64,000 bases of DNA from a virus (lineage: Duplodnaviria > Heunggongvirae > Uroviricota > Caudoviricetes). The translations under genes were made by a program, and so were the position numbers. The stretch spans positions 46,629 through 110,628 of the IMG/VR virus record IMGVR_UViG_3300003155_000137. The stretch is one strand, 5' to 3'. Of the stretch, positions 493 through 61,060 are shown piece after piece (the stretch's first letter is position 1; the number at the start of each line of letters is the position of its first letter). Under the pieces are notes generated by a model. It was given only the letters and a program-made list of their open reading frames with translations, made no database searches and was not told the origin of the DNA.

Positions 493-3400
493 ATGACCAA
501 CAGGTATGTTCCACTCCACTGCCATAGCCATTACTCGCTGCTGGACGGATACCAAACCGTTCCGGAATACGCGAGGTATCTGACGGAGAACGGATACAGG
601 GCCGGCGGGCTGACCGACCACGGTGTCGTGTCCGGTCTTGAGGAGTTCGACTATGAGCTTCGCAGGCTCGGTGATGTCAAGCCGGTTCTCGGCATAGAGG
701 CGTATCTGACCGACGATGTCACCAACATCATGACGAACCGCCCGATTCTTGATTCGGCCGGCAGACCCAAGGTCGATAAGAAGACCGGCGAGCCGATGTT
801 CGAGAAGCAGAGGCCGAAGGATTTCAATCACGGATGCATGTGGGCTGAGAACGACAGGGGTCTTGAGAACCTGTTCACGCTGTCCACGCTCTCGTATGAG
901 AGGGGCTTCTACCGTAAGCCCAGAATAGACCTCCCGATGATGCGGGATCATCACGATGGTCTTTTCGTGTCGGACGGATGCCTTCTGTCCCAGGTCGCAA
1001 GAGCCGCCGTCGATGCGATTGGGGCGAACGATGACAGGTCGCGCCAGACCGCCATCGACAAGGCATATGACTGGATCGAATCGCTGGTCGACATCTTCGG
1101 ACGCGACCATGTCCTCATAGAGCTGCATACATGGCAGTTCACCAATCCAGGAGATGACGAGAAGTCTCTTGAGCTGAACCGCCAGATGCGGGCGGCCAAC
1201 CATCTGAAGCTCCAGCTTGCCAGGGACCTCGGGCTCATGACCATAGCGGTCAACGACGCCCATTACGGCCATCGTGAGGACTATGAATGGCACGAGCTCG
1301 AATGGTCCACCACCACGAAGAAGGGTGAGGATTACAACGACGACAAGACCGACGGAAGAGGCGAGACCGCCGCGTGGGTGATGAACGACGACGAGGTGCG
1401 CTACTGGCTCGGGAGGCATGGTCTCCCGGAGGACGCGATAGAGGAATCCATCGAGAACACGTCCAGAATAGCCGATGCGTGCAACGCCCACATCAACCGC
1501 TCGCTCAATCCTCCGAGGTTCCTCGACACGAGGGAGGAGGACGAGGAGCTGTTTGACAGGACCATCGCCGACGGCTTCAAGGAGCTTGTTCCGAAGAAGA
1601 AGGCCGGCGAGTACATGGATAGGCTCAACCGCGAGGTCGAGCTGGTCAAGAAGTGCGACCTGACAGGCTATTTCAACACCGTCGCCGACTACTCGAACTT
1701 CGTCCGCGCCGAGGACCCCGATGGCGAGACGTATGGCATCGAGGGCAAGCACGCATCTTTATTAGGGCCAGGACGCGGATGTTTCCTCCCCGGCAATCTC
1801 GTGTCAACGTTTAAGCGCGGATTTCCCCATCGCAACCTTTGGCCGGATACAGGTTACGAGTTCGACGAGCCGCTGAAGCGCATCGAGGACATCAAGGTCG
1901 GGCAGAAGGTGCTGACGCACGATTGCACGTTCCACGAGGTTCTTGAGAAGTACGAGTACGATGTGCATGACGAGGACTGCGTTGAGCTCACGCTCAGCAA
2001 CGGTCACGTCATCAGGTGCACCGCGGATCACTGCATATTCCGTCAGGACGATGGATTCGTTCGCGCCGACGAGCTGCATGAAGGCGACGTGCTTGAGGGG
2101 TCGTACCGTCCGAAGGAGACTGTTGACGTGGTGTGTGCCGATTGCGGACACCGCCAGAAGCTCCCGTTCATCAAGTGGAAGAGCGACATGACGACTTCTT
2201 CGGTTGTCCGTGATAGAGGAGTGTTCATCTGCGCACACTGCCGCAACAAGAGGAACAGTGACTACTACAAACCCATCACATCGAAGCTCGGTGCCATCGC
2301 CGCTGCATCTCCGGAGTCGCGTCTCAAGAACTCGGAATCGGTGAAGAGGTTCTGGGAGACCCATCCAGACGTCAAGGACGCTGTGGCCAAAAAGACGGTT
2401 GAGCGCTACAAGAACCCAGTCAACCGTATGCTCACCGCTGAGGCGACATCAAAGGGATTGTCGATGCTTGGCGAGGAGCAGTATATGAGGATGTCCCTGT
2501 CCAATGGGTACAAGACAGGCATCTTCTACTCGCAGAAGATGGGGAGGAACATTTTCTTTGCGTCGTCATACGAGTTGAAGGCAATCCACATCTTCGAGAC
2601 CGACTCTAACGTCGTGAGCTACGACAGGTGCAAGTCCGATGACGGGGACCACCTTCTCTACATCAGATATGGGTATGCGCGACGGTACAATCCCGACTTC
2701 GACGTCCGTTATTCGGATGGAACGAGGAAGATAATCGAGGTGAAGGCCGATTGGCGTCGTAACGACCCGGTGACTCTGGCGAAGGCCGACGCGGCCCGTG
2801 CATACTGCGACGCAATCGGTGCCGAGTATGAAATCTGGGGAAGACACGAGCTTGAGGTGGCCAACGACTGGCAGCACATTCCGACCACCGTCACGTCGGT
2901 TCGCCACTTCAAGTACACGGGCAAGGTCTACGATCTCCATGTCGAGGGGGTGCACAACTACACGGTCGGCCGCGTCACGGTACACAATTCGGCTGGTGGA
3001 AGTCTTGTCTGCTATCTCATGCACATCACCAACCTCGACCCGATCAAGTTCGGACTGATCTTCGAGAGGTTCCTGACTGCCGGACGTGTCATCAGCACGG
3101 TGCATGTCGCGTTCGACGACGGCACGGAGAAATCGTATGACCCGTCAGACATGGTTGAGCTTTCGGACGGCACGAGCGAGGAGTCATGGCATCTTCTCGA
3201 CGAGGCCGGACTTGAGACCAAAGACGGTGTTGTCGATCATACGTGGTTCGATTTCCATGACTGCCCCGACATCGACCTTGACTTCACCGCCGAGGTCATC
3301 CCGTTGCTCAACGCCTACTTGAAGAAGCGTTACGGCGAGGAGAACTTCTGCCACATCGGGACGTTCCAGGAGCTCAAGCTGGCGTCGGCGATCAAGGACA

Positions 3401-5244
3401 TCGCAAGGGTCGACGGCATATCGCCGCAGGAGGCCATGGGATACGTCAGGGAGCTTGAGGCGTCCGGCTGGCCGATGAACGACTCCACCCTGTCACACAC
3501 GTTCGATGAACTGTGGCAGTGCATCGCATTGAGCGCCGACCTCATGGACCTCGGCAGGGATTTCTGGGAGCGCGTCTGGCAGTGGTGCGGTCGCTACCGT
3601 TCCGAGGGAATCCACGCATCGGGCTACGTCATCTCGAAGGCGTCCCTTATGGGTCGCGTCCCGCTTCGCATCAAGAAGGGCGAGGACCTTTACACGTCGC
3701 AGTGGGACTACGACTCGATAGTCCGTTGCGGATTCATCAAGTTCGACATCCTGAAGCTCAGCTCGCTGGATACCATCACCGACGTGTACAGGCTCACGCA
3801 CGACGGCGAGCTTGACGTGCAGGAGGCGTATCGTGAGATGCGCGACGAGAGGTTGCTTCGTGGCAAGGCCCTGTGGGGTCCGACATGGGGCGGCGACACG
3901 CTTGGCATCTTCCAGATGGACACCAAGCTCGGTACGACCACGGCCATGAACGCGCGCATCAATTCGCTCCGCGACGCCGGCATGCTGTCCGCAGCCGACC
4001 GCCCAGGACTCGTGCGTTCCGGCCTCATCGACGAGTTCTACAAGGTGAGGCTGGGTCAGGAGCCGGTGAACCACTATCACCCGCTCATCGACGACATCCT
4101 GGAGGAGACCGACGGGTTCATCCTCTATCAGGAGCAGATCATGAGCATCTATCAGCGCATGTGCGGCATGACGATGGGTGAGGCAGACAACGTCCGCAAA
4201 ATCTTCTCCAAGAAGAAGCTCGACAAGGTCGAGGAGATGAGGAACCTGCTCCGCGATTCGTGCCTGTCAAGCCGGGAGTTCGTGAGACTCACCCCGGACA
4301 AATACCGCAACGTCGAGGAGTGCTTCGACGACATCTGGAGGGGTCTTTCCAGAACCGCCGAGTACAGCTTCAACAAGTCCCACGCGACATCCTACGGACA
4401 GATCACGGCGATTGAGGAACTCTACAAGGTCAACTTCCCCGCCGAGTTCATCACGGCGTCGCTGAACACCGACCCGTCGGACACCAGATTCATCTCGTGG
4501 GCCAGGGCTCATGGAATCAGGGTGGCACCGCCGAACGTCAATCTTTCCGGTTCGCGATACGAGCTGAGGGACGGCGTCATCTACATGCCCATCCACTCCA
4601 TCAAGGGGATAGGACCCGCTGCGGTCAAGGAGATATTCGCGGGAGCGCCATACTCGTCGTTCGACGACTACCTTGAGCGCACGTCCGGTCGTGGTGGGCG
4701 GAAGAAGGATGTCATGACCTCGCTCATCTCCATCGGTGCGTTCGACGGCGTCGATCCGCGAGACCGGTTCGAGCTCATGTGCATCTGGAAGACCATGCGC
4801 AAGGAGGAACCGCCGAAGCGCAACACATGGAAGTCCGCAAGGGTCCGTGGAAGAATCGAGGAACGCCTGATCGGCGTGTCGTTGTCGTATGACCCCGTCC
4901 TCGACAACCGTGAGATGCTTGAGTCGCTCGGCCCGCAGAGCCTTCCGGATGTCATGCAGACCGGTGTCGGTGGATTCGTGAGCGTCGCCGGTGAGATCAC
5001 CGAGATTCGCAGGCACCAGGCGAAGACCGGTGAGATGGCGTGGGTGAAGATACGCTTGGTGTCCCATGACGATGTGGAGGTGACCGTTTTCCCGTCCAAG
5101 TGGAGCGATATGAAGGACCTGTTGCAGTCTCACGACCTCGTGTCGGTGAGATGCAAAAGGACGGACGACTACAACGGCAAGATGTCGCTCATAGCCATGA
5201 GCGTCAGGAACATGTCCCTTGAGGACAAGGGGGTTGTGAAATGA
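493..5244 (+). CDS. dnaE: DNA polymerase III alpha subunit (DnaE-type, PHP domain) interrupted by an intein
   Basis: An N-terminal PHP motif HCHSHYSLLDG is present. The polymerase and fingers regions follow the insertion. The 1583-aa ORF is continuous. The intein spans 1780-2988. Confidence 0.8.
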   Translation: MTNRYVPLHCHSHYSLLDGYQTVPEYARYLTENGYRAGGLTDHGVVSGLEEFDYELRRLGDVKPVLGIEAYLTDDVTNIMTNRPILDSAGRPKVDKKTGEPMFEKQRPKDFNHGCMWAENDRGLENLFTLSTLSYERGFYRKPRIDLPMMRDHHDGLFVSDGCLLSQVARAAVDAIGANDDRSRQTAIDKAYDWIESLVDIFGRDHVLIELHTWQFTNPGDDEKSLELNRQMRAANHLKLQLARDLGLMTIAVNDAHYGHREDYEWHELEWSTTTKKGEDYNDDKTDGRGETAAWVMNDDEVRYWLGRHGLPEDAIEESIENTSRIADACNAHINRSLNPPRFLDTREEDEELFDRTIADGFKELVPKKKAGEYMDRLNREVELVKKCDLTGYFNTVADYSNFVRAEDPDGETYGIEGKHASLLGPGRGCFLPGNLVSTFKRGFPHRNLWPDTGYEFDEPLKRIEDIKVGQKVLTHDCTFHEVLEKYEYDVHDEDCVELTLSNGHVIRCTADHCIFRQDDGFVRADELHEGDVLEGSYRPKETVDVVCADCGHRQKLPFIKWKSDMTTSSVVRDRGVFICAHCRNKRNSDYYKPITSKLGAIAAASPESRLKNSESVKRFWETHPDVKDAVAKKTVERYKNPVNRMLTAEATSKGLSMLGEEQYMRMSLSNGYKTGIFYSQKMGRNIFFASSYELKAIHIFETDSNVVSYDRCKSDDGDHLLYIRYGYARRYNPDFDVRYSDGTRKIIEVKADWRRNDPVTLAKADAARAYCDAIGAEYEIWGRHELEVANDWQHIPTTVTSVRHFKYTGKVYDLHVEGVHNYTVGRVTVHNSAGGSLVCYLMHITNLDPIKFGLIFERFLTAGRVISTVHVAFDDGTEKSYDPSDMVELSDGTSEESWHLLDEAGLETKDGVVDHTWFDFHDCPDIDLDFTAEVIPLLNAYLKKRYGEENFCHIGTFQELKLASAIKDIARVDGISPQEAMGYVRELEASGWPMNDSTLSHTFDELWQCIALSADLMDLGRDFWERVWQWCGRYRSEGIHASGYVISKASLMGRVPLRIKKGEDLYTSQWDYDSIVRCGFIKFDILKLSSLDTITDVYRLTHDGELDVQEAYREMRDERLLRGKALWGPTWGGDTLGIFQMDTKLGTTTAMNARINSLRDAGMLSAADRPGLVRSGLIDEFYKVRLGQEPVNHYHPLIDDILEETDGFILYQEQIMSIYQRMCGMTMGEADNVRKIFSKKKLDKVEEMRNLLRDSCLSSREFVRLTPDKYRNVEECFDDIWRGLSRTAEYSFNKSHATSYGQITAIEELYKVNFPAEFITASLNTDPSDTRFISWARAHGIRVAPPNVNLSGSRYELRDGVIYMPIHSIKGIGPAAVKEIFAGAPYSSFDDYLERTSGRGGRKKDVMTSLISIGAFDGVDPRDRFELMCIWKTMRKEEPPKRNTWKSARVRGRIEERLIGVSLSYDPVLDNREMLESLGPQSLPDVMQTGVGGFVSVAGEITEIRRHQAKTGEMAWVKIRLVSHDDVEVTVFPSKWSDMKDLLQSHDLVSVRCKRTDDYNGKMSLIAMSVRNMSLEDKGVVK
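1780..2988 (+). other. Intein (403 aa) within dnaE, carrying a zinc-finger/NUMOD-like/PD-(D/E)xK homing endonuclease domain
   Basis: The start is Hint block A CFLPGNLV (GRG|C). The end is VHN|S. Inside are CxxC...CxxC and YNPDFDV...IEVK motifs. Confidence 0.7.
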
Positions 5245-6107
5245 CCAAGGCCAGGGTGTTGGCGTTCGACGGCAACTATGTCATCATGAGGTCGTGGAAC
5301 GCATTCTCGCAGCTTTCGACCGAGGATGGCCGTCCATCCGGCGCGTTGTACGGATACATCTCGTCATACAGGAGGTTCCTTGAGAAGTACCGTCCGAAGT
5401 ACCTCATCCCGCTCTTCGACTACGGAAGGTCGTCGTATCGCACGTCAATCGACGCGAGCTACAAGTGCGACCGTGGGGCGAAGCCGGACGAGCTCATCGC
5501 CCAGATGGATGCATGCAGGGAGTTCGTCCGTCTGATCGGCGGAAAGCCGTATGTCGAGAGGAACGTGGAAGCCGACGATCTGGCCGCGAAGATAGCCAAG
5601 GAGTATGCTGGCGGCGACTACAGCGTTCTTCTGTTGTCGGCGGACCACGACTGGCAGCAGCTTGTGGGCGACAACGTCACGTTCCTCCGCCCGAGGGGAC
5701 ATGGCGACGGCGAGGACGTCATAACCTACGGCAAGGCCGAGGAGCGTCTTGGGTGGCCACCCGAGCGGTGGGCCGAGGTCGCCGCCATCATGGGTGACCC
5801 CGGAGATCACGTCATCGGAATCAAGGGGTATGGATGGAAGAAGTCGCTCAAGACGGTGTCCGAGCATGGCGACCTGTGGACTGCGGTCGAGGAGGACCCG
5901 AAACTGAAGCCCCATGCATCCACCATCCTGAGGAACTACAGCCTCGTGAAGCTGACCGGCGACGTTCCGAGCGAACCGGTCCCCCTTGAGCAGAACAGGG
6001 TCAAACGGCTCGATGCGTCGAAGCGCAACTCCGAGCTTGTGGAATTCTTGGAGTCGTGGGGCATGGAGTCCTTTGCCGAGATGGTGATGTCGAATGAGTT
6101 CATCTGA
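5241..6107 (+). CDS. 5'-3' exonuclease / flap endonuclease (Pol I N-terminal-like, PIN fold)
   Basis: Composition and motifs (LAFDGNY, GALYGY, acidic clusters) fit the FEN/53EXO family. The start overlaps the dnaE stop. Confidence 0.55.
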   Translation: MTKARVLAFDGNYVIMRSWNAFSQLSTEDGRPSGALYGYISSYRRFLEKYRPKYLIPLFDYGRSSYRTSIDASYKCDRGAKPDELIAQMDACREFVRLIGGKPYVERNVEADDLAAKIAKEYAGGDYSVLLLSADHDWQQLVGDNVTFLRPRGHGDGEDVITYGKAEERLGWPPERWAEVAAIMGDPGDHVIGIKGYGWKKSLKTVSEHGDLWTAVEEDPKLKPHASTILRNYSLVKLTGDVPSEPVPLEQNRVKRLDASKRNSELVEFLESWGMESFAEMVMSNEFI

Positions 6108-6825
6108 CGAAGGTGGCAAGCGGCCGGTCGATGTCCTTGAGTCCTATGGACTGCCGCTTGGTGTCAGATGGTATCGGTGGAACGGCGACGAACACGTCTG
6201 CGATGTCTGCGGTCTCATCTTCGACGATATCCAGAAGCTCTCGGTGCATCGAAGGTATCACTTCGCGTATACGATATCCGGAGTGGATCAGGGTACGAAC
6301 TTCGACGACCTTGTGTCCGGCGTGATGATGATGTGGAACGAGTTCCGCTCCGAGCATCCGTTGCCGGTCGTCGTCCCGCTGTTCGGTGACGTCAACGTCC
6401 GTGGAAGGACGAGGGGCGTCATCGACCGATCCGGTTCGTATATGCCGCTGTACTACGAGGACAGGATTCTCGACGAGTCGACGTCGGTTCGCTATGGGGC
6501 CATCGTGTTCCCTGATATGTGGATGAGGCTTGACATCGACGGCAAGTGCGCCTCCTTGGCACATACGGCGGCGCATATCGAGAACGCCACGACGCAGCAT
6601 GTGCATGACATATCGTTCTCCGGCAACGGGTGGCATAACCGTCTCTTCATGAGAACCGCATGCACATACGACCTCTATGTGTCCAACGTCCCCGGTCGCG
6701 GATACGCCATGACCATCATCAACGACACGTTCCGTGAACGGCACGCCGACGCCATGAAGCGTATGGGCAGGTTCAGGCCGTTCTCGGACATCGGCGGAAG
6801 GCGCGTCGGGTATTGCGGACTATGA
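6094..6825 (+). CDS. Hypothetical protein with one C2H2-like zinc finger
   Basis: HVCDVCGLIFDDIQKLSVHRRYHF. Confidence 0.3.
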   Translation: MSSSDEGGKRPVDVLESYGLPLGVRWYRWNGDEHVCDVCGLIFDDIQKLSVHRRYHFAYTISGVDQGTNFDDLVSGVMMMWNEFRSEHPLPVVVPLFGDVNVRGRTRGVIDRSGSYMPLYYEDRILDESTSVRYGAIVFPDMWMRLDIDGKCASLAHTAAHIENATTQHVHDISFSGNGWHNRLFMRTACTYDLYVSNVPGRGYAMTIINDTFRERHADAMKRMGRFRPFSDIGGRRVGYCGL

Positions 6826-7566
6826 GTGCCGGAGTCCTGGAGTCAACGTATCATAGGAACCATGAACGTAATGACACTGGACATCGAGACCACCGGACTC
6901 GACTACATGCACGACGACATCATCGAGGTCGCCATCCACGGCGATATCGGAACCGCCGACATCTACATCCAGTCCGATGTGGACAGCGCTCCTGAAGCGC
7001 TTGAGAGACATCATCTGACCAAGGACTTTCTGGCAGACCATAAGAAATACGACACAAGAAAATCGGCCCTTGAGGTGGTCGCGTCAATCATCTCCGACCC
7101 GGAGTCCCATATCGTCGCCCACAATGCGAAGTTCGTCTTCACGATGCTGATGTGCAATATGATACGCGAAGATGTGGGTTCCGACCTGCTTGACGCCATG
7201 TCGAACGTCGTTCCCCTTGACACGATGGTCATGGATGTCATGCTCAATCCGAACGCCCGTGGAAGGTCGCGCTCGCTCCCGTCGCTCTGCAAGCTGTATG
7301 GCACCGACATTCGTCCGAACGGGTCGGCCAAGAGGGATGCGAAGTGCATCGCGGAGATCGCCGATGCCCAGATCGGACTGCTCGTCCGCGACAACGAGAA
7401 CGTGTCTGACGCCCACATCGACTCGCTGTCCGAGCTGGTGGCCAAGAGGGCCGAGGAGCAGCAGTTCGACAGAAACCTGTGGCTTGAGGCGCATGGTCGT
7501 GACGAGGAGCCGACTGGATATCCGTACTTGTGGAGGTACACTGAGGAGCTGTCCTTGGATTTCTGA
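6826..7566 (+). CDS. DnaQ-like DEDDh 3'-5' exonuclease
   Basis: Exo I motif LDIETTGLD and Exo II motif IVAHNAKFVF are present. Confidence 0.65.
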   Translation: MPESWSQRIIGTMNVMTLDIETTGLDYMHDDIIEVAIHGDIGTADIYIQSDVDSAPEALERHHLTKDFLADHKKYDTRKSALEVVASIISDPESHIVAHNAKFVFTMLMCNMIREDVGSDLLDAMSNVVPLDTMVMDVMLNPNARGRSRSLPSLCKLYGTDIRPNGSAKRDAKCIAEIADAQIGLLVRDNENVSDAHIDSLSELVAKRAEEQQFDRNLWLEAHGRDEEPTGYPYLWRYTEELSLDF

Positions 7567-7647
7567 CACGCGGATTTTGCGTTTTCCGCAGACCGATGTA
7601 CACTGAATACATGCTCGGTTTTACAGCCGGACTACCTATCTAGACTG

Positions 7648-7700
7648 CATGAGGGTCGTGTGAGGTTTTCGCTGTTTTCCTCACACGAGCCTCATGGCTC
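7648..7700 (+). terminator. Nested perfect hairpin (CATGAGG-GTGTGAGG / CCTCACAC-CCTCATG) with a T-rich loop, after the exonuclease gene
   Basis: The inverted repeats are read directly from the sequence. Confidence 0.45.
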
Positions 7701-7715
7701 AATCCACGGTCTGGA

Positions 7716-7775
7716 GGACGATGCGCTTGGTGCGCGTCACCGGGTTCGATTCCCGGTCTGGAACGGCAGGCTCGG
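7716..7775 (+). ncRNA. tRNA-like fragment (canonical T-arm CCGGG-TTCGATT-CCCGG), incomplete cloverleaf
   Basis: The T-arm is present but no acceptor or D-arm partner was found. A direct repeat CGGTCTGGA lies at 7706 and 7763. Confidence 0.2.
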
Positions 7776-7996
7776 TGTCTGTTCCGCGCTAGTCCGACGA
7801 TGAGCGAGGCGAGTCGTCGGATGCGGTTCAGGCGGCCATTACCGTGGTCGAGTCCGCTCCGGAACGGTAATTCGCGGGAGCGGGTGCGTGCATAGCGGCG
7901 CGCGCACATGAACAGTGCGGAGGCACAGATAAAAGCTCACGCCGCGTCCATGCGACGGATCGGGTTGTGTGGACGCGGAGCGCCGCATGTGCTCGG

Positions 7997-8035
7997 GCAC
8001 GGAGGTGTTTTCTCACCTCTTTTCCGCCTCCGTGC
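7997..8035 (+). terminator. Hairpin GCACGGAGG...CCTCCGTGC with an inner GGAGGTG-TTTTCT-CACCTC stem followed by TTTTCC
   Basis: The inverted repeat and T-run are read directly. Confidence 0.4.
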
Positions 8036-8044
8036 TTGGGCGAC

Positions 8045-8117
8045 GGGGTATTGGCGCAGTTGGTAGCGCATCTGCTTTGCAAGCAGAGGGTCGCCGGTTC
8101 GAGTCCGGCATGCTCCA
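8045..8117 (+). tRNA. tRNA-Ala (anticodon UGC)
   Basis: Acceptor GGGGTAT/ATGCTCC, D-arm GCGC..GCGC, anticodon stem TCTGC/GCAGA with loop TTTGCAA, and T-arm GCCGG-TTCGAGT-CCGGC all fold. Confidence 0.8.
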
Positions 8118-8224
8118 CGATGCCGACGTCCGTGGTCTTCTCGTCATGGCCACGGATGGTCGGCGCGACGCCGGACGTGGTGTGCTTCCTCCTTTCGGTC
8201 ATGGGTTCTGACATCGTCCGGTTG

Positions 8225-8298
8225 GCCCGCCTAGCTCAGATGGCCAGAGCGGCCGCCTTGTAAGCGGCAGGTCGTCGGTTCGATCCCGACGGCGGGCT
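8225..8298 (+). tRNA. tRNA-Thr (anticodon UGU)
   Basis: Acceptor GCCCGCC/GGCGGGC, anticodon loop CTTGTAA and T-arm GTCGG-TTCGATC-CCGAC all fold. Confidence 0.8.
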
Positions 8299-8301
8299 CA
8301 T

Positions 8302-8374
8302 GCGTCCGTGGTGTCAATGGTCAGCACTTCTGCCTTCCACGCAGACGGAGCCGGTTCGAGTCCGGTCGGACGCT
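8302..8374 (+). tRNA. tRNA-Gly (anticodon UCC)
   Basis: Acceptor GCGTCCG/CGGACGC, anticodon loop CTTCCAC and T-arm GCCGG-TTCGAGT-CCGGT all fold. Confidence 0.75.
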
Positions 8375-8541
8375 CGGTGGCGCGCCAATGTCAATGTTGA
8401 CGGCGTTTCTGTCCACGGGATGGTGTTTAATCATAGTGACGGTTCCGATAACGGAACCGTAGGCACGAAAGGCGATGTCCCGCATGTATTCGGCGGGACG
8501 ATGCACGAATTGCCTATGACGAACACTGAAAGGTATATGAG

Positions 8542-9468
8542 ATGGCAACATCAAGCAAGTACGCGGACGCGGCCAAGCGCTATGACGAGCGCACCAAGTT
8601 CTCCGGCGTCTCCGACAAGACGCTCAAGTTCATCACCAACACCAAGAAGGAGCCGAAGATTTACATCCAGCTCCTTTCCGAAGGGCTTCTCGCCGTTCCG
8701 ATGCACAACTTCGTTGAGGTGAAGGGCGGCGACGGCAACACCCACAAGATGTCGTTCGTCTGCCAGTCGCTCATCGACCGCCCCTGCTACATCTGCGACA
8801 ACGGCCTTGCCGTCGACCAGTACAACAAGGACGGCAAGCCCCGCAAGCGCATGGTCGGACTGGCCATCCAGTTCGAGAAGTCCGGCAAGAAGTACACGCC
8901 GATTCGTGAGGACATCGTCGTCACGCCGGAGACCGGCAAGCGGATCGCCAAGAAGTATCCCGACCTCTCGCCGAAGATCGACGAGGATCGCTACACGTTC
9001 ACCGACATGCCGAAGGTGGGCATTCTCGACACCAACAAGTCCGTCGACGACGGCCTCGCGCTCATCATGACCGAGACCGGTTCCGTGAACGACTGCATCT
9101 TCCTCATCGCAAGGACCGGCGAGGGGCTTCAGACCTCGTACTCGGCCCAGCGTCTGAGCGATTCCCCCATCGACTTCGATGAGGAGGATGACGAGCTCAC
9201 CCAGGAGGTGATGGCCTCCATCGAGATGTCCATGAGCGTCGACGACTACATCGACGCCTACATCTCGGAGGATCGTCTCAAGTCCGCGTTCGGGCTTGAC
9301 TCCGACGGCCCGTCCAAGAGCCGCCGTTCGTCGGATCGTGATGACGAGGATGAGGACGTCGATGACGAGGACGTCGATCCTGACGACGATGACGACGACG
9401 ATGACGACGTCGACATGGATGCGATGTTCGCCAAGTCGTACCGTCGCGGACGTCGTCACGATTCATGA
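8542..9468 (+). CDS. Putative gp32-like ssDNA-binding protein (zinc site plus acidic C-terminal tail)
   Basis: H-x5-C-x8-C-x2-C (HKMSFVCQSLIDRPCYIC) resembles the T4 gp32 zinc site. The C-terminus has a (D/E)-rich tail, DDEDEDVDDEDVDPDDDDDDDDDVD. Confidence 0.35.
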   Translation: MATSSKYADAAKRYDERTKFSGVSDKTLKFITNTKKEPKIYIQLLSEGLLAVPMHNFVEVKGGDGNTHKMSFVCQSLIDRPCYICDNGLAVDQYNKDGKPRKRMVGLAIQFEKSGKKYTPIREDIVVTPETGKRIAKKYPDLSPKIDEDRYTFTDMPKVGILDTNKSVDDGLALIMTETGSVNDCIFLIARTGEGLQTSYSAQRLSDSPIDFDEEDDELTQEVMASIEMSMSVDDYIDAYISEDRLKSAFGLDSDGPSKSRRSSDRDDEDEDVDDEDVDPDDDDDDDDDVDMDAMFAKSYRRGRRHDS

Positions 9469-9507
9469 ACGGAATCGTGGGCTAGGTTCTCATTCATGTA
9501 GATAAAC

Positions 9508-9533
9508 GGGCCGGTCATGGTGGTGGCCGGCCC
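9508..9533 (+). terminator. GC hairpin GGGCCGG-N11-CCGGCCC after the SSB-like gene
   Basis: Inverted repeat read directly; there is no U-tract, which is common in actinobacterial terminators. Confidence 0.3.
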
Positions 9534-9566
9534 CATTCGCCATCAGCTTTCGGAAGGAGAAACGCC

Positions 9567-10856
9567 TTGGCTACGGCTCTTGACAAGATAAAGGCCAAAT
9601 TGCAGGGCAGGTACGGCGATCTGTCGGTGATGACGCCGAGCGACATGGTGGACAAGGGTGTCGTCAGCTCCGGCTCACTCGCCATCGATTACATGGTCAG
9701 CTCCAAGCGCGGATTCGGAATACCGCGCAACATCGTCGTCGAGATCGGCGGCAAGCCCGGATGCGGAAAATCCACACTCGCCATGAACATCATCTCCAAC
9801 GTCCTCGACTTGGAGTTCGAGCGCGCCAAGATGTACGTCCGCCTTGAGAAGTCCGTGAAGACGGGCGCGGCGTCAGCCGACGACATGGAGCGGTTCAAGG
9901 CGGCTTGGGACAGGCAGTCGGACGACCTCCATGTATTCGACGACGACTCGACCAACATGCTGCTTGATGAGGTTGAACTGTCCGATTCGGAGATCGACCA
10001 CGCCATCGACGACGTCATGAGGAACGCGCTTTACTGCGATATCGAGGGCAGATTCGACCAGCATTGGGCCGCGAACTTCATCGACCACAGATGGCTTGAG
10101 CGCAAGTTGCTCGTGACGTGGCCCGACACCATCGAGAACGCGACGACGATGTATGTTGACGCGCTTCGCACCGGAACGTTCGCCGTCGCGGTCATTGACT
10201 CCATCGGCGGTGCCCCGACCGTCAAGACGTTCGACAAGGAGGCGGAGAAGGCGTCGGTCGGCGGCAACGCGGTGGGTGTGACGGCGTTCGCCAAGTATGC
10301 CCAGAACATGTCGAACAAGTTCACCTGCCTTACCATCGGACTCCAGCAGGTTCGCGCCGACATGGAGGGCTTCAGGCGCTACATCACTCCTGGTGGCGAG
10401 GGGTGGAAGCACGCATGCTCGTTGCGTATCGAGCTTCGTCGCTCGAACAAGGAGGTCGTCTACGACGATGACCCCGGCGCTCCCGAGACCCAGGTCGTAT
10501 GCGGTTTCAAGGTCCATGCTCGTCTTCACAAGAACTCGGTTGGTCTTTCCGGCAGGGAGGTCGCCCCGTGGTTCTACACCATGCCCTGCAAGTACGGAGA
10601 CCCCGGATTCGACAGGTTGCAGGACGTCGTGAATCTGGCGACGCTGTCCGGTGTGCTGGAGAAGGGGGCGTCTGGGACCTACCGCAGCGACATCCTCCCC
10701 GATGGAAGGATTCGCGGCTACGACCGACTCATCCAGTACCTCCGTGACAACGAGGACGTGTACAACTCGCTCCGTTCCCAGATGGAGGACAGGTTGCTTC
10801 ACGGTGGCGTGGAGGGGTACGTCTCGACGTTCGACGATTCCGAGCTCGATGATTAG
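9567..10856 (+). CDS. RecA/UvsX-like recombinase
   Basis: SGSLAIDYMV...GIPRNIVVEIGGKPGCGKSTLAMN matches the RecA N-terminal core and Walker A. Confidence 0.6.
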   Translation: MATALDKIKAKLQGRYGDLSVMTPSDMVDKGVVSSGSLAIDYMVSSKRGFGIPRNIVVEIGGKPGCGKSTLAMNIISNVLDLEFERAKMYVRLEKSVKTGAASADDMERFKAAWDRQSDDLHVFDDDSTNMLLDEVELSDSEIDHAIDDVMRNALYCDIEGRFDQHWAANFIDHRWLERKLLVTWPDTIENATTMYVDALRTGTFAVAVIDSIGGAPTVKTFDKEAEKASVGGNAVGVTAFAKYAQNMSNKFTCLTIGLQQVRADMEGFRRYITPGGEGWKHACSLRIELRRSNKEVVYDDDPGAPETQVVCGFKVHARLHKNSVGLSGREVAPWFYTMPCKYGDPGFDRLQDVVNLATLSGVLEKGASGTYRSDILPDGRIRGYDRLIQYLRDNEDVYNSLRSQMEDRLLHGGVEGYVSTFDDSELDD

Positions 10857-10927
10857 TAGACGGAATTTGTGTTTTTGCGGATGTTGAGCTATCGTTGTGG
10901 GTTGGACTATGTGAAGGGAGCGCGTGT

Positions 10928-11461: not shown

Positions 11462-11467
11462 TGCCCA

Positions 11468-15323: not shown

Positions 15324-15496
15324 CGCCGACCACCGCCGTTCAGCTCATCAGGAAGTACAGGCCCGATTCCAGCATCAGGCAGATGGGGAAGGGCGGTGCG
15401 TGTCTGGCATACGGTCCTGTTTTGTCAGACACGTTACACTGTTGTCTTGTTGAGGGGTATAATCGTGTTCATGAAATGTATGAAGTGCGGAGCTGA
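15320..15496 (+). pseudogene. Duplicated remnant of the primase 5' end (MTPTTAVQLIRKYRPDSSIRQMG...) that then diverges
   Basis: The ATG overlaps the dnaB stop (ATGA). The first ~22 codons parallel the start of the primase copy at 16403. Confidence 0.35.
15434..15463 (+). promoter_or_regulatory. Candidate promoter for the homing endonuclease: perfect TATAAT at 15458-15463, with TTACAC 18 nt upstream
   Basis: An AT-rich TATAAT hexamer in a GC-rich genome, immediately 5' of the ATG at 15471. Confidence 0.3.
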
Positions 15497-16406
15497 GGTT
15501 TTAGCCGGAGATGCGGTTGCGCATGCAAAGTCTCATGGGATTGCGGTCTGTTGTTTCTGCGGAAGACCGTCAAAGAACTCAAGTGGAGGTTCCCTCCACG
15601 TAAGGCTTTCACATGTATTGTCTGACAAGGAGCGCTCTGAACGCATGCTTCCGACAAGAACCGAAACTGCGAAACGCAAGAAGTCGGAATCGCTAAAGAA
15701 ATCTTGGAGCAATCCGGAAGTTTATAGGAGGCGGTGCGAATCGCAGAATCGACCAGAGACGAGCAGGAAAAAGTCAGAAGCCAACAAGATAAGCCACAAC
15801 ACAAAAGAGTTTAAAGAACGCCAACACAATGCTTTGGTTGAGGCGTTTGCACGCCCAGAAGTTAAAAAGCATATGTCCGAAAGGCAACAGTGCAAGATTG
15901 GTACGCCGGCTTACCTAAAGCGTCAAAGGACACTGAACTCTGAAGAGTACAGGGAAAGGTGCTCGCAGAGATTGAAGAATCGGTGGCTGTTATATAGCGA
16001 CTCCAGAAAATACGAATCTGTTCAGGGCATGATTGAAGCTGGCGGTAGTGGACACAAGCGCACCATTCGGAACAAGAGGGGCTCCTCTGTCAAGTGTGAT
16101 TCCGATATGGAGTATGAGTATTGCAAGTTGCTTATGGCTGACGACGATGTCGTTGACTTTGATAGGTTTGCTGGTGTCATCCACCTGATAGGGATGGATC
16201 GGGTCTATATTCCAGATTTTGTTGTTAATCGACGAAGCGGAGTCAGGGAACTTATAGAGGTTAAGTCAAGCTGGACAGCGAAGTTCCCTACGTTTCCATT
16301 CAAAGTCGAGGCGGCAATCGCTTGGTGCGAAGAGCACTCAATGACTTACAAGATTGTTCGAGAGTCAGATATGTGTGAGTACGAAAGGAGGTTGTTGAGC
16401 CAGTGA
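15471..16406 (+). CDS. Free-standing homing endonuclease (C2H2-like zinc fingers + NUMOD-like repeats + PD-(D/E)xK nuclease), copy 2
   Basis: MKCMKCGAEV start; repeated x-K-K-S-W-x-x-P-E motifs; C-terminal YIPDFVV...IEVK. Confidence 0.6.
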   Translation: MKCMKCGAEVLAGDAVAHAKSHGIAVCCFCGRPSKNSSGGSLHVRLSHVLSDKERSERMLPTRTETAKRKKSESLKKSWSNPEVYRRRCESQNRPETSRKKSEANKISHNTKEFKERQHNALVEAFARPEVKKHMSERQQCKIGTPAYLKRQRTLNSEEYRERCSQRLKNRWLLYSDSRKYESVQGMIEAGGSGHKRTIRNKRGSSVKCDSDMEYEYCKLLMADDDVVDFDRFAGVIHLIGMDRVYIPDFVVNRRSGVRELIEVKSSWTAKFPTFPFKVEAAIAWCEEHSMTYKIVRESDMCEYERRLLSQ

Positions 16407-21592: not shown

Positions 21593-22609
21593 ATGCCAAG
21601 CCGTGGAACAAAGGGGCTTCTTGCGGGCCTGACCCCGGAGATGCTGCTTGACGTCGAGCAGGAGTCCAAGGGGATACCGTTCGAGCCGATGGAGTTCTTC
21701 GAGTCCGACAGGTACTGCGGCATGAACCTGTATCCGATGCAGCGCCTTCTCCTGAAGATCATCAATCTCTACGAGGACTATACCGACCGTGAGAACCAGC
21801 TCATCGACCAATGGACGTCGACGTACTGTGATCGTGGATACCGTGTCGGCATCGTATCCGACGTCCGTGAGCGCATCCGCATTCTCAGGAGGAATGGGTA
21901 CAAGGCGTTCAACCAGATCATCCTGATACTTGGTCGAAGGGCATCCAAGACCACGCTGTGCGGTGCCCAATGGGCGCTTCATGACGCCCAACTCCTTTCC
22001 GAGGGGATTCCGAGGGTTTCCGACACCAGCAAACAGGATGACATCACCTACGGCATAGCGATGGCGACGACCGCCCAGCAGGCGCAGGAGTCGATCTTCG
22101 CAAGCTATTACCGGACGGTGGCGAATTGCCCTTGGTTCTCCAAGTACATCAAGCGAGTAACCCCGTTCGAGATCACCTACCAGACGCTTGAGGACAAGCT
22201 CAAGACGGTGGATATGATCGAGTCCGGAATCAACGTCGAACGCGAGCCGGTGAGCATGGTGTGCCGCCCCATCAGCTCCAACTCCGATTCCATCAGAGGT
22301 CGTCCTGTTGTTGACTTCTGCCTTGGCGAGGATTCCCTTGTCCGCATGTCTGACGGATCGGTAATGCGAATCGCCGACTTGTCCGTCGGAGACCACGTTT
22401 CCGCATTCAATGAGAATAATCCGAGTGTCCCCGAAGACGCAGAGGTGCTGGCGGTACATCATCTCAGGAAGCCGACGAAGCGTATATGGTTCGATGATGG
22501 AACATATATTGACGCGACCGACGAACACAGGTTCGTCAATGGTGATGGCGACTGGGTGGAGGTCAGGGACATGAGGCCCGGAGACACGATAATGGAGGGT
22601 GGTGAGTGA
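21593..22609 (+). CDS. Terminase large subunit N-terminal part (Walker A ATPase) fused to an intein N-terminal half
   Basis: TerL-type Walker A LGRRASKTT; the extein ends ...RPVVDF. Hint-N runs from C at 22319 (CLGEDSLV block A, ATDEH block B) to the stop at 22607-22609. Confidence 0.55.
   Translation: MPSRGTKGLLAGLTPEMLLDVEQESKGIPFEPMEFFESDRYCGMNLYPMQRLLLKIINLYEDYTDRENQLIDQWTSTYCDRGYRVGIVSDVRERIRILRRNGYKAFNQIILILGRRASKTTLCGAQWALHDAQLLSEGIPRVSDTSKQDDITYGIAMATTAQQAQESIFASYYRTVANCPWFSKYIKRVTPFEITYQTLEDKLKTVDMIESGINVEREPVSMVCRPISSNSDSIRGRPVVDFCLGEDSLVRMSDGSVMRIADLSVGDHVSAFNENNPSVPEDAEVLAVHHLRKPTKRIWFDDGTYIDATDEHRFVNGDGDWVEVRDMRPGDTIMEGGE
22319..22606 (+). other. Intein N-terminal half (Hint-N) of a split or fractured intein
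   Basis: Blocks A and B are present and the ORF stops right after Hint-N. Confidence 0.5.
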
Positions 22610-23589
22610 GCGTTTTGTCTGCTACTACGTATCGCGGCGTGAGAGTCGATGAGTCATTGATGCGGTGCCTTGAGTGCGATAGGTCGTTTTCGTCACTGGG
22701 AGGGCTGAGAAGGCATGCCGCCGGGCCTCGGCACAAGAATGGGTCGTCTCAGTGCGATGTGTGCGGAAAGCGATTCGACACACCAACCGGGGCGAGAATG
22801 CACATGCGCGTCCACAACATCGAGCTGAACGAACACGGTGAGCGCTCAGACGGTCCATTCGTGTGTAGCGTTTGCGGTAGAGAGTTCACGTCACTGCGAG
22901 GTCTTGGCAGCCACATCAGATATCATGACCCAAACTATCGCGAGTGGCGTCGTGGACTGCATTTCGGGAGGCAGATGAGCGCAGAGTCGAAAGAAAAGAT
23001 GCGCCAGACTCAGCTCAGGAAGTACAGTGATCCGGAGTTCTCAAAGCGAATGGCGGACTCGAAGAGAACGGTGGCCTCCAGAGCCAGGTACAGCGCCGCC
23101 AGAAGGCGTGTGATTGATGGCTATGATGACCAGCGTCTAATCGACCTGTCAAGGATGGCAATGGGAAATCTCGTGAGAACGATGTCTGGGGATTCCCGTG
23201 GCCATAGGAGCGTCCACCATTCGCAGAAGGCTGGTGACATCCATTGTGATTCCGACCTTGAGCTGAGATTCTGTCGAGACCTGGACGGGTTCGACAACGT
23301 GTTCGCTTATGGCAGATGTGACGACTGTATCGTGTATTCGTTCGATGGCAGGAGACACGTCTACAACCCAGACTTCTGTGTTCAGACCGACGAGGGCACG
23401 GTGATTGTTGAGATCAAGGGTGCAGACTCCGACCAGGTCAGGGCAAAGATGGATGCGGCGGTCGAGTATTATCGCAGATTGGGGCTTGAATATGTCCTCA
23501 TGTTTGAAGGCGATATCGAACGCTGTGAAGAACGTGGAAGATTCATGTATGGAGGAGGTGGTGCAGATGAAGCGGATTGCAAGGATTGA
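22606..23589 (+). CDS. Free-standing homing endonuclease (3 C2H2 fingers + NUMOD-like repeats + PD-(D/E)xK), copy 3, between the intein halves
   Basis: The GTG start overlaps the upstream stop (GTGA) and lies in a different frame from the intein. C2H2 fingers are CLECDRSF..H, CDVCGKRF..H and CSVCGREF..H. The nuclease motif is YNPDFCV...VEIK. Confidence 0.6.
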   Translation: MSVLSATTYRGVRVDESLMRCLECDRSFSSLGGLRRHAAGPRHKNGSSQCDVCGKRFDTPTGARMHMRVHNIELNEHGERSDGPFVCSVCGREFTSLRGLGSHIRYHDPNYREWRRGLHFGRQMSAESKEKMRQTQLRKYSDPEFSKRMADSKRTVASRARYSAARRRVIDGYDDQRLIDLSRMAMGNLVRTMSGDSRGHRSVHHSQKAGDIHCDSDLELRFCRDLDGFDNVFAYGRCDDCIVYSFDGRRHVYNPDFCVQTDEGTVIVEIKGADSDQVRAKMDAAVEYYRRLGLEYVLMFEGDIERCEERGRFMYGGGGADEADCKD

Positions 23590-23680
23590 GAACATCGGTG
23601 ACGCCGACGTCGTTGACATAACGACGAGTACGCACACGTTCATAGCCAATGGACTCAAGACCCACAACTGCTTCGATTAG
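23567..23680 (+). CDS. Intein C-terminal half (Hint-C) followed by only 3 extein residues (CFD) before a stop
   Basis: MKRIARIENIGDADVVDITTSTHTFIANGLKTHN|CFD* carries blocks F and G. Its ATG lies inside the 3' end of the HEG ORF. Confidence 0.5.
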   Translation: MKRIARIENIGDADVVDITTSTHTFIANGLKTHNCFD

Positions 23681-23700
23681 CGGACGAGGCGTTTTTCTCG

Positions 23701-24162
23701 TTGGCTGGAAACTCGTCAAGGTCGGGTGACAGGGCCATATCGGCCATACTGCCGGCCACGCAGACGTTCGGCAAGGACAGGCTTGTCATGTTCCCCTCGT
23801 CTCCGTGGACGAGGTCCGGAAGGGTCTACAGGGCATATCTCCAAGGCGACATGTCCGTGGTCGATGAAATGGACGACGATGAAAAAGAAAATTTGGAATC
23901 GCTGGAGAGGGCTAGGGCCGACGTGCAGTCGGCTATGGCGTCGGACCCGTCGATTCTTGTTGTCCAACTTGAGTCGTGGCGTCTGTACGAAGACTGGAGT
24001 CTGGGTTCGTATGTGCCGACCTATCATTCAGGATGGTCCCCGAAACGACTGACGCTCCAGGACGAATCCGGAAGGGTCATGACCGTCGACGCGGAGACGA
24101 ACGCCGAGGTTGGAGACTTGGTGAATATCGACGACAAGGAGGAAGAGAATGTCGAATCATGA
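23701..24162 (+). CDS. Terminase large subunit C-terminal fragment (Walker B/motif III region), in a different frame from Hint-C
   Basis: An open frame from 23617 reads ...ADEAFFSLAGN...VMFPSSPWT (DE Walker B and S-S-P coupling motif), continuing the RPVVDF extein logic. There is no ATG; TTG lies at 23701. Confidence 0.4.
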   Translation: MAGNSSRSGDRAISAILPATQTFGKDRLVMFPSSPWTRSGRVYRAYLQGDMSVVDEMDDDEKENLESLERARADVQSAMASDPSILVVQLESWRLYEDWSLGSYVPTYHSGWSPKRLTLQDESGRVMTVDAETNAEVGDLVNIDDKEEENVES

Positions 24163-25387: not shown

Positions 25388-25396
25388 GACACCAAG

Positions 25397-25402: not shown

Positions 25403-25426
25403 GAGAGATGTCTGGAGGTGAATTGA

Positions 25427-32748: not shown

Positions 32749-32771
32749 TGGTTTGTTATTGGAGGTTTGTC

Positions 32772-60097: not shown

Positions 60098-61060
60098 ATG
60101 TCGTTCGAGTGCGATATCTGCCACAGGGAGTTCATGAAGCGGAATGCGCTTGGTGCCCACATAAAGTTCAAACACACCAAGAAGACGGATGCGGCGACCG
60201 TCAAGTGCCCGGAATGCGGCAGGGAGTGCAAGGGGACGCTTGGCCTCAATAGGCACATGAGGCTCAAGCATGACCCAAAGACCAACGCCACCATATCCGA
60301 AAATTCGAGACGCATGTGGGCGGACAAGGAAACCCACGACCGTATCGTCAGCGGAATCCGCAAGGCATACGAATCCGATGATGTCAGGCGAAAGGTGTCA
60401 GAGGCCACGTCCATCGCATTGTCGAATCCGGAAACCAGGGCAAAGCTCTCCGAGGCATCCAAAAGGATGTGGGAAAGACCGGAGTACCGTGAGAAGATGA
60501 GGCCATACATGAATCGCATCCAGCATGATCCCGAGATGCGCGAGCGCCACTCTGAAGCGATGAGCGCACACTGGGCCGATTCGGAATACAAAAGCCGGGT
60601 GTCCGCCCGCATATCGGAGTCGAACAGGAGAAGAATCGCCGAATCGACCGATGAGGAGTTGCAGAAATGGCTTGGCCCGCATCATGGCGTACATAGCGAC
60701 ATACTCAATAAAAGCGGGAAGAAGGTTCATTGTCAATCCTCGTTTGAGCTCAGATACTGCGAACTGCTGCTCCGCGACGAATCGGTGAAGGATTTTGACC
60801 GCTCCGGCTTGTGGCTCGACATCATCGGAACCGGAAGAAAGTACAATCCGGATTTCATGGTCGTGTTTTCGGATGGCCATCGTGAGCTGGTTGAGGTGAA
60901 AAGCTCGTTCTCGATACGAGACCCTCTTGTTCCGTTCAAGACCGAAGCGGCCATTTCATGGTGCGAAGAGAACTCAGCAGTATACAGATTGCTTAAGGAG
61001 GATCAGCTCGACATGTACGAATCACTCTTGAATGGAGACGATCATGGCATCATCGATTGA
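60098..61060 (+). CDS. Free-standing homing endonuclease (C2H2 fingers + NUMOD-like repeats + PD-(D/E)xK), copy 4
   Basis: FECDICHREF...H and CPECGREC...H fingers; repeats xxSExxKRMWxxPExRxK; nuclease motif YNPDFMV...VEVK. An ACTAGAATTG motif lies upstream. Confidence 0.6.
   Translation: MSFECDICHREFMKRNALGAHIKFKHTKKTDAATVKCPECGRECKGTLGLNRHMRLKHDPKTNATISENSRRMWADKETHDRIVSGIRKAYESDDVRRKVSEATSIALSNPETRAKLSEASKRMWERPEYREKMRPYMNRIQHDPEMRERHSEAMSAHWADSEYKSRVSARISESNRRRIAESTDEELQKWLGPHHGVHSDILNKSGKKVHCQSSFELRYCELLLRDESVKDFDRSGLWLDIIGTGRKYNPDFMVVFSDGHRELVEVKSSFSIRDPLVPFKTEAAISWCEENSAVYRLLKEDQLDMYESLLNGDDHGIID

Follow-up and report, generated by a model that had tools for sequence, protein, structure and literature searches.

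A TnsA-like nuclease module in four putative homing endonucleases of a chicken gut phage, in intein, split-intein and intergenic settings

Introduction

Why does a single phage genome carry four copies of one nuclease module, one of them inside the intein of its DNA polymerase? The question is raised by a window of 64,000 nucleotides (positions 46,629 to 110,628 of the IMG/VR record IMGVR_UViG_3300003155_000137), which lies on a contig of 137,478 bp in a chicken gut metagenome (ENA ERZ922862, k127_79594) and comes from an uncultivated myovirus-like phage of the chicken gut, with a genome of 137 kb. The module forms the C-terminal part of the endonuclease of the dnaE intein (1780-2988; all coordinates are those of the window unless a related contig is named) and of the proteins of three open reading frames (ORFs) at 15471-16406, 22606-23589 and 60098-61060, which are referred to below by their first position. 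The endonuclease domains of inteins are usually described as belonging to the LAGLIDADG or HNH types. The four proteins studied here probably belong to a large and modular family of putative homing endonucleases, which occupies three niches in this genome.

The background against which these loci can be read is the work of Dassa 2009. Split inteins with a free-standing GIY-YIG or Vsr-like endonuclease gene between their halves have been reported in several genes, including those for the terminase and DnaE (Dassa 2009; PMC2677866). In the model proposed there, a free-standing homing endonuclease gene (HEG) invades a mini-intein, splits it and later becomes fused in frame, and the HEG types found in such 'fractured genes' were not known within inteins (PMC2677866). 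In what follows, L-numbers designate related contigs or loci and P-numbers related proteins retrieved by the searches.

The TnsA-like nuclease module

The relationship of the four modules to one another is supported by several independent comparisons. The Pfam family PF08722 (Tn7_TnsA-like_N) matches the intein, the 15471 ORF, the 22606 ORF and the 60098 ORF with E values of 7e-6, 5.7e-8, 3.1e-4 and 3.1e-6, respectively, and the scores of the intein (27.0 bits), the 15471 ORF (33.7) and the 60098 ORF (28.1) lie above the gathering cut-off of 26.5. BLASTP between pairs of the four copies gives E values from 1e-8 to 1e-40, and a hidden Markov model (HMM) of the module, run against the six-frame translation of the window, retrieves exactly four copies at 173-191 bits (174 bits for the dnaE intein copy), the next match scoring 6 bits. 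In an alignment of nine sequences, comprising the four window proteins and five relatives, the residues S-x-x-E ... Y-x-PDF ... E-x-K are invariant; all four copies are encoded by full-length ORFs and retain every catalytic residue. An earlier note on this DNA, made from the sequence alone, had proposed a common C-terminal nuclease module with catalytic PD and ExK signatures, to be abandoned if profile comparison revealed no relationship or if the catalytic residues were missing. Pfam, HMM and alignment evidence, together with the fold model described next, bears the proposal out: the relationship is significant and the signatures are present, along with an invariant upstream glutamate.

The identity of the fold is equally well defined. 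A profile of the family aligns with solved TnsA chains (E 3.9e-5), placing its E, PD and ExK residues on ESSLE, YTPD and EYK of TnsA. The AlphaFold2 model of the 60098 module has a pLDDT of 91.1, and the only confident PDB matches that Foldseek returns for it are the TnsA entries 1T0F and 1F1Z (probability 1.0, TMq 0.71-0.72). A PDB profile search of the module returned TnsA and T7 endonuclease I and neither Vsr nor I-Ssp6803I, and in Pfam scans at E<=1 the four proteins matched neither the Vsr nor the I-Ssp6803I (PF11645) family. The assignment of the module to the TnsA-like branch of the PD-(D/E)xK (restriction-endonuclease) fold, based on sequence profiles and on the predicted structure, is solid.

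Given that the best Pfam, NCBIfam and PDB matches are all to TnsA, and that a restriction endonuclease model (BPTD_3080) is matched weakly, it could be asked whether the four proteins are true TnsA subunits of a Tn7-like heteromeric transposase or parts of a restriction or defence system. The scores fall far under the respective cut-offs (13-40 bits against 110 for TnsA_like_Actin, the one NCBIfam subfamily model of TnsA type with a match, and 24-36 against 800 for BPTD_3080), the matches to TnsA are restricted to its N-terminal catalytic domain, and no tnsB-, tnsC- or methylase-like gene was identified among the neighbours scanned (helicase, primase, terL halves and structural genes). Moreover, one copy lies within an intein and another between intein halves, a context by which this explanation is effectively refuted.

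The family extends well beyond this phage. A HMMER scan of the nuclease profile against 1.84 billion cluster representatives, each standing for a cluster at 50% identity, found 8020 at E<=1e-3 and 2003 at E<=1e-10. Architectures and relationships were derived from the best 150 or so of these. Apart from the DnaE proteins considered in the next section, they are short proteins with a C-terminal nuclease and variable N-termini, which carry C2H2 fingers in about 25 cases and, in the remainder, Cys4 ribbons, canonical NUMOD3 arrays or modules of another kind.

The dnaE intein and its endonuclease

The intein of dnaE is inserted in frame within a conserved motif of the polymerase, between GPGRG and SAGGS. 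It displays the hallmarks of a class 1 (Hint fold) intein, namely Cys1, a block B of the TxxH type (TADH), a terminal HN and Ser at position +1; Pfam Intein_splicing matches it with an E value of 1.6e-14, the NCBIfam models for intein N- and C-termini match as well, and splicing is predicted. Between the splicing blocks lies an insert of about 265 amino acids (aa; nucleotides 2101-2895), the last 125 or so of which are the shared module. The suggestion of the earlier note that one copy is the endonuclease domain of the dnaE intein thus agrees with the intein anatomy and with the matches to both Intein_splicing and PF08722.

This arrangement recurs elsewhere. Ten of the best 150 cluster representatives are DnaE proteins that carry the module inside an intein at the same site (GxGRG, followed by the intein C...HN and by S), nearly all of them with the same zinc ribbon and repeats ahead of the module. 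Word-index searches further retrieved mini-inteins at the same dnaE site (P0011-P0016). In addition, two natural deletion derivatives are present among the relatives: P0010, whose flanks are near-identical to those of P0009, has lost the endonuclease, and P0036 lacks the ribbon and the repeats. The dnaE intein belongs to a recurrent and apparently undescribed intein type.

Several further observations concern the polymerase gene itself. The DnaE of the window has an in-frame insert of about 58 aa (3088-3261; DnaE aa 866-923) between ERFLTAGR and CPDIDLDF. The DnaE proteins P0012, P0013, P0015, P0016, P0028 and P0031 stop within the sequence equivalent to this insert, and in L008 a clamp-loader-like gene stands between this point and the remainder of dnaE. 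The insert has the look of joined tails from a DnaE that was once split, or of the ancestor from which the split form arose. P0030, a DnaE of 2445 aa, apparently contains three inteins with differing insert types when read by eye, the first being TnsA-like and at the same site. In L009, whose dnaE intein carries a TnsA-like endonuclease, an ORF of 280 aa made almost entirely of CxECGG-type zinc-ribbon repeats (L009 3962-4804) lies between two dnaE fragments.

The split terL intein and the 22606 endonuclease gene

The second intein-associated copy is located in the gene for the terminase large subunit (terL), where the 22606 ORF separates the two halves of an intein, IntN and IntC (Table 1). 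Its GTG start overlaps the stop codon of the ORF that ends with IntN (21593-22609), and its end overlaps the start of IntC (ATG 23567), which is read in the same frame as IntN and is followed by Cys at +1. The fusion of IntN with IntC matches Pfam Intein_splicing (E 2e-8) and Hint (E 3e-4), and the modelled spliced TerL matches PHROG 2, the terminase large subunit (E 5e-7).

Comparison with related phages shows this site in different states. The same split layout, with a C2H2 plus TnsA-like endonuclease, is found in two distant phages, L007 (a 103-kb IMG/VR contig; TerL identity 51%) and L024 (TerL identity 46%). L044 (TerL identity 55%) has at the same site a contiguous mini-intein of 136 aa and no endonuclease gene, and this mini-intein aligns end to end with the window IntN, a five-residue linker and the window IntC. 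P0165 represents a terL without an intein. The terL locus has the layout of the fractured genes of Dassa 2009, and its halves are predicted to splice in trans. The earlier note had counted the 22606 ORF among the free-standing genes; although separate, this ORF lies within a split intein, so that two of the four copies are intein-associated and not one. Of all the features found, this split-intein arrangement tells the most.

Other features of the locus can be added here. The 22606 ORF is flanked by similar GGAGG-GTGGTG segments (22591-22605 and 23548-23565), which correspond to a single segment in the HEG-less L044 mini-intein, and each copy provides the ORF that follows with a Shine-Dalgarno-like sequence: the first serves the HEG and the second IntC. 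In L024 the N-terminal part of terL (1768-3249 of that contig) contains a complete mini-intein of 129 aa whose +1 Cys is the first IntN residue of the split intein; one terL site thus holds two adjoining inteins, which share 36% identity. Immediately after the terL fragments comes a tnpB gene, and no terL nuclease domain was found in the window. A scan of JGI metagenomes with IntC and the C-extein as the query produced no match.

The two intergenic genes

The remaining copies lie between genes. The 15471 ORF is situated between the genes for a DnaB-type helicase (14034-15323) and a primase (16565-17377), and its cluster representative, P0017, starts two codons further upstream. The 60098 ORF belongs to the structural block, in which it precedes the genes for a virion protein and the tail sheath, and is syntenic in L001-L006.

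These positions invite another explanation for this pair, namely that the 15471 and 60098 genes are domesticated nucleases or DNA-binding regulators with a fixed role, for instance in gp4-like head completion, in packaging or in recombination, and that only the intein-associated copies are HEGs. Gp4 of phage T4 is itself a TnsA-like nuclease (PMC7824862), all four proteins match PHROG 218 ('head closure'), and the sole match of the nuclease in deposited phages is a 'head completion protein'; the constant position of the 60098-type gene within the structural block of all relatives seen, with no empty site found, would also fit. The PHROG 218 match of the intergenic copies is, however, no stronger than that of the intein copy, and in both architecture and nearest relatives they belong with the clade of the split-intein HEG. 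Both are placed between conserved genes, as are free-standing HEGs in T4-like phages. Furthermore, the 60098 locus is mosaic: P0002, encoded at this locus on six contigs of a related phage, shares 95.6% identity with the 60098 protein over the first 160 aa and 43.7% in the nuclease module. A swapped module of this kind is typical of mobile nuclease genes and shows, at the level of sequence comparison, module exchange within the family. Taking both sides together, we regard domestication of the two intergenic genes as unlikely and retain a putative homing function for all four copies.

In addition, a stand-alone C2H2 ORF of 120 aa directly follows the tail sheath gene in L001 (13080-13442 of that contig), and L002-L006 have it at the corresponding position; this ORF may be what remains of a HEG reduced to its fingers, or an independent regulator.

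N-terminal zinc modules and repeats

Zinc-binding modules precede the nuclease in all four proteins, as the earlier note had claimed, yet their assignment to the C2H2 type holds in part. Among the four, only the 22606 ORF (three fingers, 47 bits) and the 60098 ORF (two fingers, 26.2 bits) match Pfam zf-C2H2 significantly. The two C2H2-like patterns of the 15471 ORF are recognised by regular expression only, with no detection by Pfam models, and the dnaE intein has instead a Cys4 ribbon (CxxC-x29-CxxC) with weak Pfam matches to treble-clef and zinc-ribbon families only.

The same note had described tandem NUMOD3-like repeats in all four. The term NUMOD3-like is a fair one as a description. In the 60098 ORF a perfect 17-aa tandem repeat is present in seven units (aa 66-184); the repeat is weak, though it can still be made out, in the 15471 ORF, and it is barely discernible in the 22606 ORF and the dnaE intein. 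NUMOD3 (PF07460) reaches significance in none of the four proteins, with best E values of 0.44-0.84 and scores of 10-11 bits against a cut-off of 20.4. The two repeat types have in common a 17-aa period and an S-E-A-x-K core. In the metagenomic proteins P0007 and P0008, units of the present repeat and canonical NUMOD3 (Pfam E 1e-31 and 1e-34) are combined in one array and in the same register. Moreover, tblastn relates the repeat region of 60098 (E 2e-12) to the non-catalytic half of gp69 of Burkholderia phage FLC6, a protein in which the identical W-x-DPEY repeat type is joined to a GIY-YIG domain. An indirect kinship of the 17-aa repeats with NUMOD3, by way of these shared arrays, is reasonable.

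Relationships among the copies

The co-occurrence of intein-borne and other copies had been taken in the earlier note as a sign of ongoing domain shuffling between inteins and free-standing genes in this genome. The comparison of the modules does not favour this idea. Identity between the four window copies is only 22-32%, and in a neighbour-joining tree of some 150 modules the intein copy falls in a clade made up almost wholly of DnaE-intein modules of other metagenomic phages, while the 15471, 22606 and 60098 copies fall in a clade nearly all members of which bear C2H2 fingers. The nearest relatives of each copy are found outside this genome. Because each copy is closer to relatives elsewhere than to the other copies here, the tree points to separate acquisitions and not to recent exchange within the genome; exchange within the family as a whole is illustrated by P0002.

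Against 50,697 phage records, tblastn with the 60098 protein and the intein endonuclease returned only GIY-YIG repeat regions and the gp4-like head-completion gene, the GTDB genomes scanned with the intein gave no match, and neither did IMG/VR scans with the 60098 protein and with DnaB. As far as these sequence searches reach, the element is in no deposited phage or GTDB genome.

A homing model and its weight

In the mechanism that we propose, the N-terminal zinc modules and repeats would bind a long asymmetric site in dnaE, in terL or in the genes beside the intergenic copies, and the nuclease would nick or cut the allele devoid of the element. In a co-infected cell, recombinational repair that uses the element-bearing genome would then copy the element in. 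The family occupies three niches here: in the first, the endonuclease is fused in frame within the predicted cis-splicing dnaE intein; in the second, it is a separate ORF that would have split the terL mini-intein into trans-splicing halves, giving a fractured gene; and in the third it is a free-standing intergenic gene. We infer a homing function for the four proteins from context: inteins that are collinear in all other respects differ in whether they have the endonuclease, both in terL (the window against L044) and in dnaE (P0009 against P0010).

It might alternatively be argued that the four genes are decaying remnants with inactive endonucleases, kept since their removal harms the host genes or because their deletion is still pending. 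Degeneration is common in the homing cycle, relatives with deletions in the endonuclease region (P0010, P0036) do exist, the copies are as divergent as 22-32% identity, and terL contains an interrupting stop. This explanation is nonetheless quite improbable: the ORFs are complete and the catalytic sites intact in all four copies, the nuclease model is confidently folded, and the 22606 ORF is intact in five comparable strains that have diverged by 2.4-4% in nucleotide sequence and is found at full length on contigs of several more samples.

Some observations weigh against the proposal of four active homing endonucleases and should be considered jointly. The score of the 22606 ORF (21.7 bits) is under the PF08722 cut-off of 26.5, although its homology to the other three is clear. 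The NUMOD3 relationship is a weak similarity, and the neighbour-joining tree is rough and without support values. Among the related genomes found, there is no empty site for the 15471 or the 60098 gene, and the fixed position of the 60098-type gene in every relative seen could fit a domesticated function. Lastly, a complete TerL requires a recoding event, and that the locus is functional is something we infer.

The interruption downstream of the terL intein

The need for recoding arises from a stop codon placed just after the intein. The sequence there is GAT TAG CG GAC GAG in the window (23669-23688), TGC TTT GAT TAG TGT GAA GAG, in frame, in L024 (4210-4236), and TGC TTC GAC TAA CA GAA GAG in L044 (1571-1596). 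A pattern GAY-stop-N2-3-GA(C/A)-GAG, in which GAG encodes the Walker B Glu, is thus kept in three lineages with TerL identities of 46-55%, and in all three terL resumes at this Glu 8-9 nucleotides after the start of the stop-bearing break. About ten samples of the window lineage have contigs with exactly the same sequence at the interruption.

A few simple explanations were rejected. An assembly error was ruled out as the cause of the frameshift, since the identical sequence recurs in about ten independent samples in which the HEG differs by 2.4-4%. Classical -1 slippery frameshifting was also discarded, there being no X XXY YYZ heptamer at TGC TTC GAT TAG and the interruption of L024 being in frame. 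As for a suppressor tRNA, the tRNAs of the window are only those for Ala, Thr and Gly. No second terL is present among the large window ORFs scanned; 73 kb of the genome lie outside the window.

A programmed translational hop is a tentative explanation for the gap, and one that we hold to be less likely than not. In such an event, peptidyl-tRNA-Asp would leave the Asp codon, skip the stop codon and the following 2-3 nucleotides, and re-pair on GAC or GAA. The product would read CFDE(A/V).F, with the Walker B 'DE' restored, and the junction peptide in the window would be ...VVDFCFDEAFFSLAGN..., while a -1 shift would instead give ...CFDLADEAFF.... The hop product aligns without gaps with intein-less P0165, L007 and P0163 (alignment A3), whereas a -1 shift or readthrough would in each case separate the Asp and Glu of Walker B by three extra residues. 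Among PDB sequences, the modelled spliced TerL had no significant match, and thus no solved terminase offers a reference for the Walker B spacing. What weakens the hop is that GAA, the landing codon in L024 and L044, is not cognate for tRNA-Asp. The predicted RNA fold around the gap is modest (z = -2.3) and is not used as support. The DNA pattern CACAACTGCTTYGATTAG had no match in IMG/VR, and its 18 matches in JGI metagenomes were discarded as chance, none being in an intein context. If the hop took place, the terL element might be a composite mobile cassette made up of a split intein, a TnsA-like HEG and a programmed translational hop, a reading that is possible but that we put forward with reserve.

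The obvious precedent is the bypass of T4 gene 60, which belongs to the MobA cassette and whose gap shields the element-bearing allele from its own endonuclease (bioRxiv 10.1101/2022.08.31.505936). By analogy, the terL gap may provide the same protection. Both cases involve a HEG-associated insertion in an essential phage gene and a short untranslated gap with a stop right after the take-off codon. They differ in that the gap is of 5-6 nucleotides here and of 50 in gene 60 (20 being the shortest reported), and in that the landing codon is matched only in the window (GAC); in addition, the bypass is read here from the alignment alone, with no stimulatory elements demonstrated.

Comparison with known systems

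With respect to TnsA of Tn7 (PDB 1F1Z and 1T0F), which is the best profile and structural match and whose catalytic E, D and K are aligned with those of the module, the proteins of this phage differ in matching its N-terminal domain only, in having no TnsB or TnsC partners and in their intein or phage intergenic context. GIY-YIG enzymes of the I-TevI type likewise tether small DNA-binding modules (zinc finger, NUMOD3-type) to a separate catalytic domain, but their domain order is reversed and their catalytic fold is another one. I-TevI itself is composed of a zinc finger, a NUMOD3 helix and a helix-turn-helix.

In layout, the closest characterised analogue is I-Bth0305I, in which NUMODs at the N-terminus precede a restriction-fold domain at the C-terminus; it acts as a dimer and leaves a 2-nucleotide 5' overhang (PMC3239194). 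Vsr-like (EDxHD) HEGs such as this one, together with the fractured genes, resemble the present family in their phage or metagenomic origin, in a NUMOD-type N-terminus followed by a C-terminal restriction-fold nuclease (PMC2677866, PMC3239194), and in their occurrence both outside inteins and as ORFs that separate the halves of split inteins in genes for DNA metabolism and the terminase. The differences lie in the active site, which is E...PD...ExK here, with no match to the Vsr Pfam family, and His-dependent in Vsr, and in the DNA-binding region, composed here of zinc fingers and 17-aa NUMOD3-like repeats and there of NUMOD2 and helix-turn-helix. I-Ssp6803I (PF11645), likewise a homing endonuclease, shares the restriction-endonuclease fold and the PD-(D/E)xK site; it is nevertheless encoded by introns in cyanobacterial tRNA genes, and is a small single-domain tetramer that recognises a symmetric site (PMC3239194), in contrast to the multidomain, modular proteins described here, which have no sequence match to its family.

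A literature search on TnsA-like or PD-(D/E)xK endonucleases in inteins or in homing, and on C2H2 homing endonucleases, returned nothing relevant, with subscription journals mostly outside its scope. A 2012 survey of the PD-(D/E)xK superfamily lists TnsA as a transposase only and leaves inteins unmentioned, and a survey of mycobacteriophage inteins reports LAGLIDADG only for the intein endonucleases characterised there. The family described here, seen within an intein, in a split intein and as free-standing genes, would accordingly represent putative homing endonucleases in which both the catalytic lineage and the architecture are new, an earlier description being possible.

Genome setting and feature table

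The gene set of the window is that of a tailed phage and includes the dnaE polymerase, a DnaB-type helicase, a primase, the terminase ATPase, the tail sheath, baseplate proteins and an endolysin. A WhiB-family gene near the window region suggests an actinobacterial host. Positions 1-12000 gave no megablast match among deposited phages, and no likeness at the DNA level to any deposited phage genome was found. Three tRNA genes (Ala-TGC, Thr-TGT and Gly-TCC) are clustered at 8045-8375. Two tnpB genes of the IS200/IS605 type (OrfB/Cas12f-like) are located at 24992-26689 and 32748-33992, the first of which adjoins a minus-strand ORF with a Y1-transposase-like HVHLLV motif; in the relatives L001-L003, the tnpB copies are elsewhere in the genome order.

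Table 1. Positions of the endonuclease-bearing loci in the window
Feature	Position	Strand	Remarks
dnaE (DNA polymerase III alpha), intein host gene	493..5244	+	Extein of 1181 aa; homologues with Pfam PHP and DNA_pol3_alpha
Class 1 intein, 403 aa (DnaE aa 430-832)	1780..2988	+	CFLPGN...VTVHN, Ser at +1
Cys4 zinc ribbon (CADC...CAHC), start of the intein endonuclease insert	2134..2244	+	Weak Pfam matches, no zf-C2H2
TnsA-like PD-(D/E)xK module of the dnaE intein	2512..2892	+	PF08722 E 7e-6, module HMM, alignment
Free-standing HEG-like gene	15471..16406	+	Two C2H2-like motifs, weak 17-aa repeats, nuclease at about 16050-16403
terL N-extein, 242 aa, Walker A GRRASKT, end ...IRGRPVVDF	21593..22318	+	
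IntN, 96 aa (CLGEDSLV...), and stop codon	22319..22609	+	Collinear with the L044 mini-intein
HEG between the intein halves, other frame	22606..23589	+	Three C2H2 fingers; nuclease at about 23200-23556
IntC, 34 aa (MKRIARIEN...LKTHN; MKRIARIENIGDADVVDITTSTHTFIANGLKTHN)	23567..23668	+	Own GGAGGAGG ribosome-binding site
First C-extein codons TGC TTC GAT (CFD), stop TAG, CG, GAC	23669..23685	+	Rest of terL in the -1 frame
Remaining terL C-extein (EAFFSLAG..., from the Walker B Glu)	23686..24162	+	Alignment A3
Free-standing HEG-like gene	60098..61060	+	Two C2H2 fingers, seven 17-aa repeats, nuclease at about 60686-61048

Significance

The TnsA-like restriction-fold domain, present in at least ten DnaE cluster representatives, would be a new entry among the types of intein endonuclease. 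Beyond this, members of one nuclease family are associated with a mini-intein, a split intein with its HEG, a fused domain, a deleted domain and a stand-alone gene, and because all those states are found in one nuclease family the model of Dassa becomes testable with related sequences. On the practical side, the IntN (96 aa) and IntC (34 aa) pair of terL and its relatives are candidate natural split inteins, and the modular endonucleases, with their zinc fingers and repeats, are possible scaffolds for the recognition of long sites. If the bypass at terL were true, programmed ribosome hopping would reach beyond the gene 60 lineage. If the terL element is indeed such a composite cassette, then the family, taken together with the in-frame dnaE version, would be the first type of nuclease observed in all steps of the proposed path that leads from the mini-intein, through HEG invasion and splitting, to the endonuclease-containing intein.

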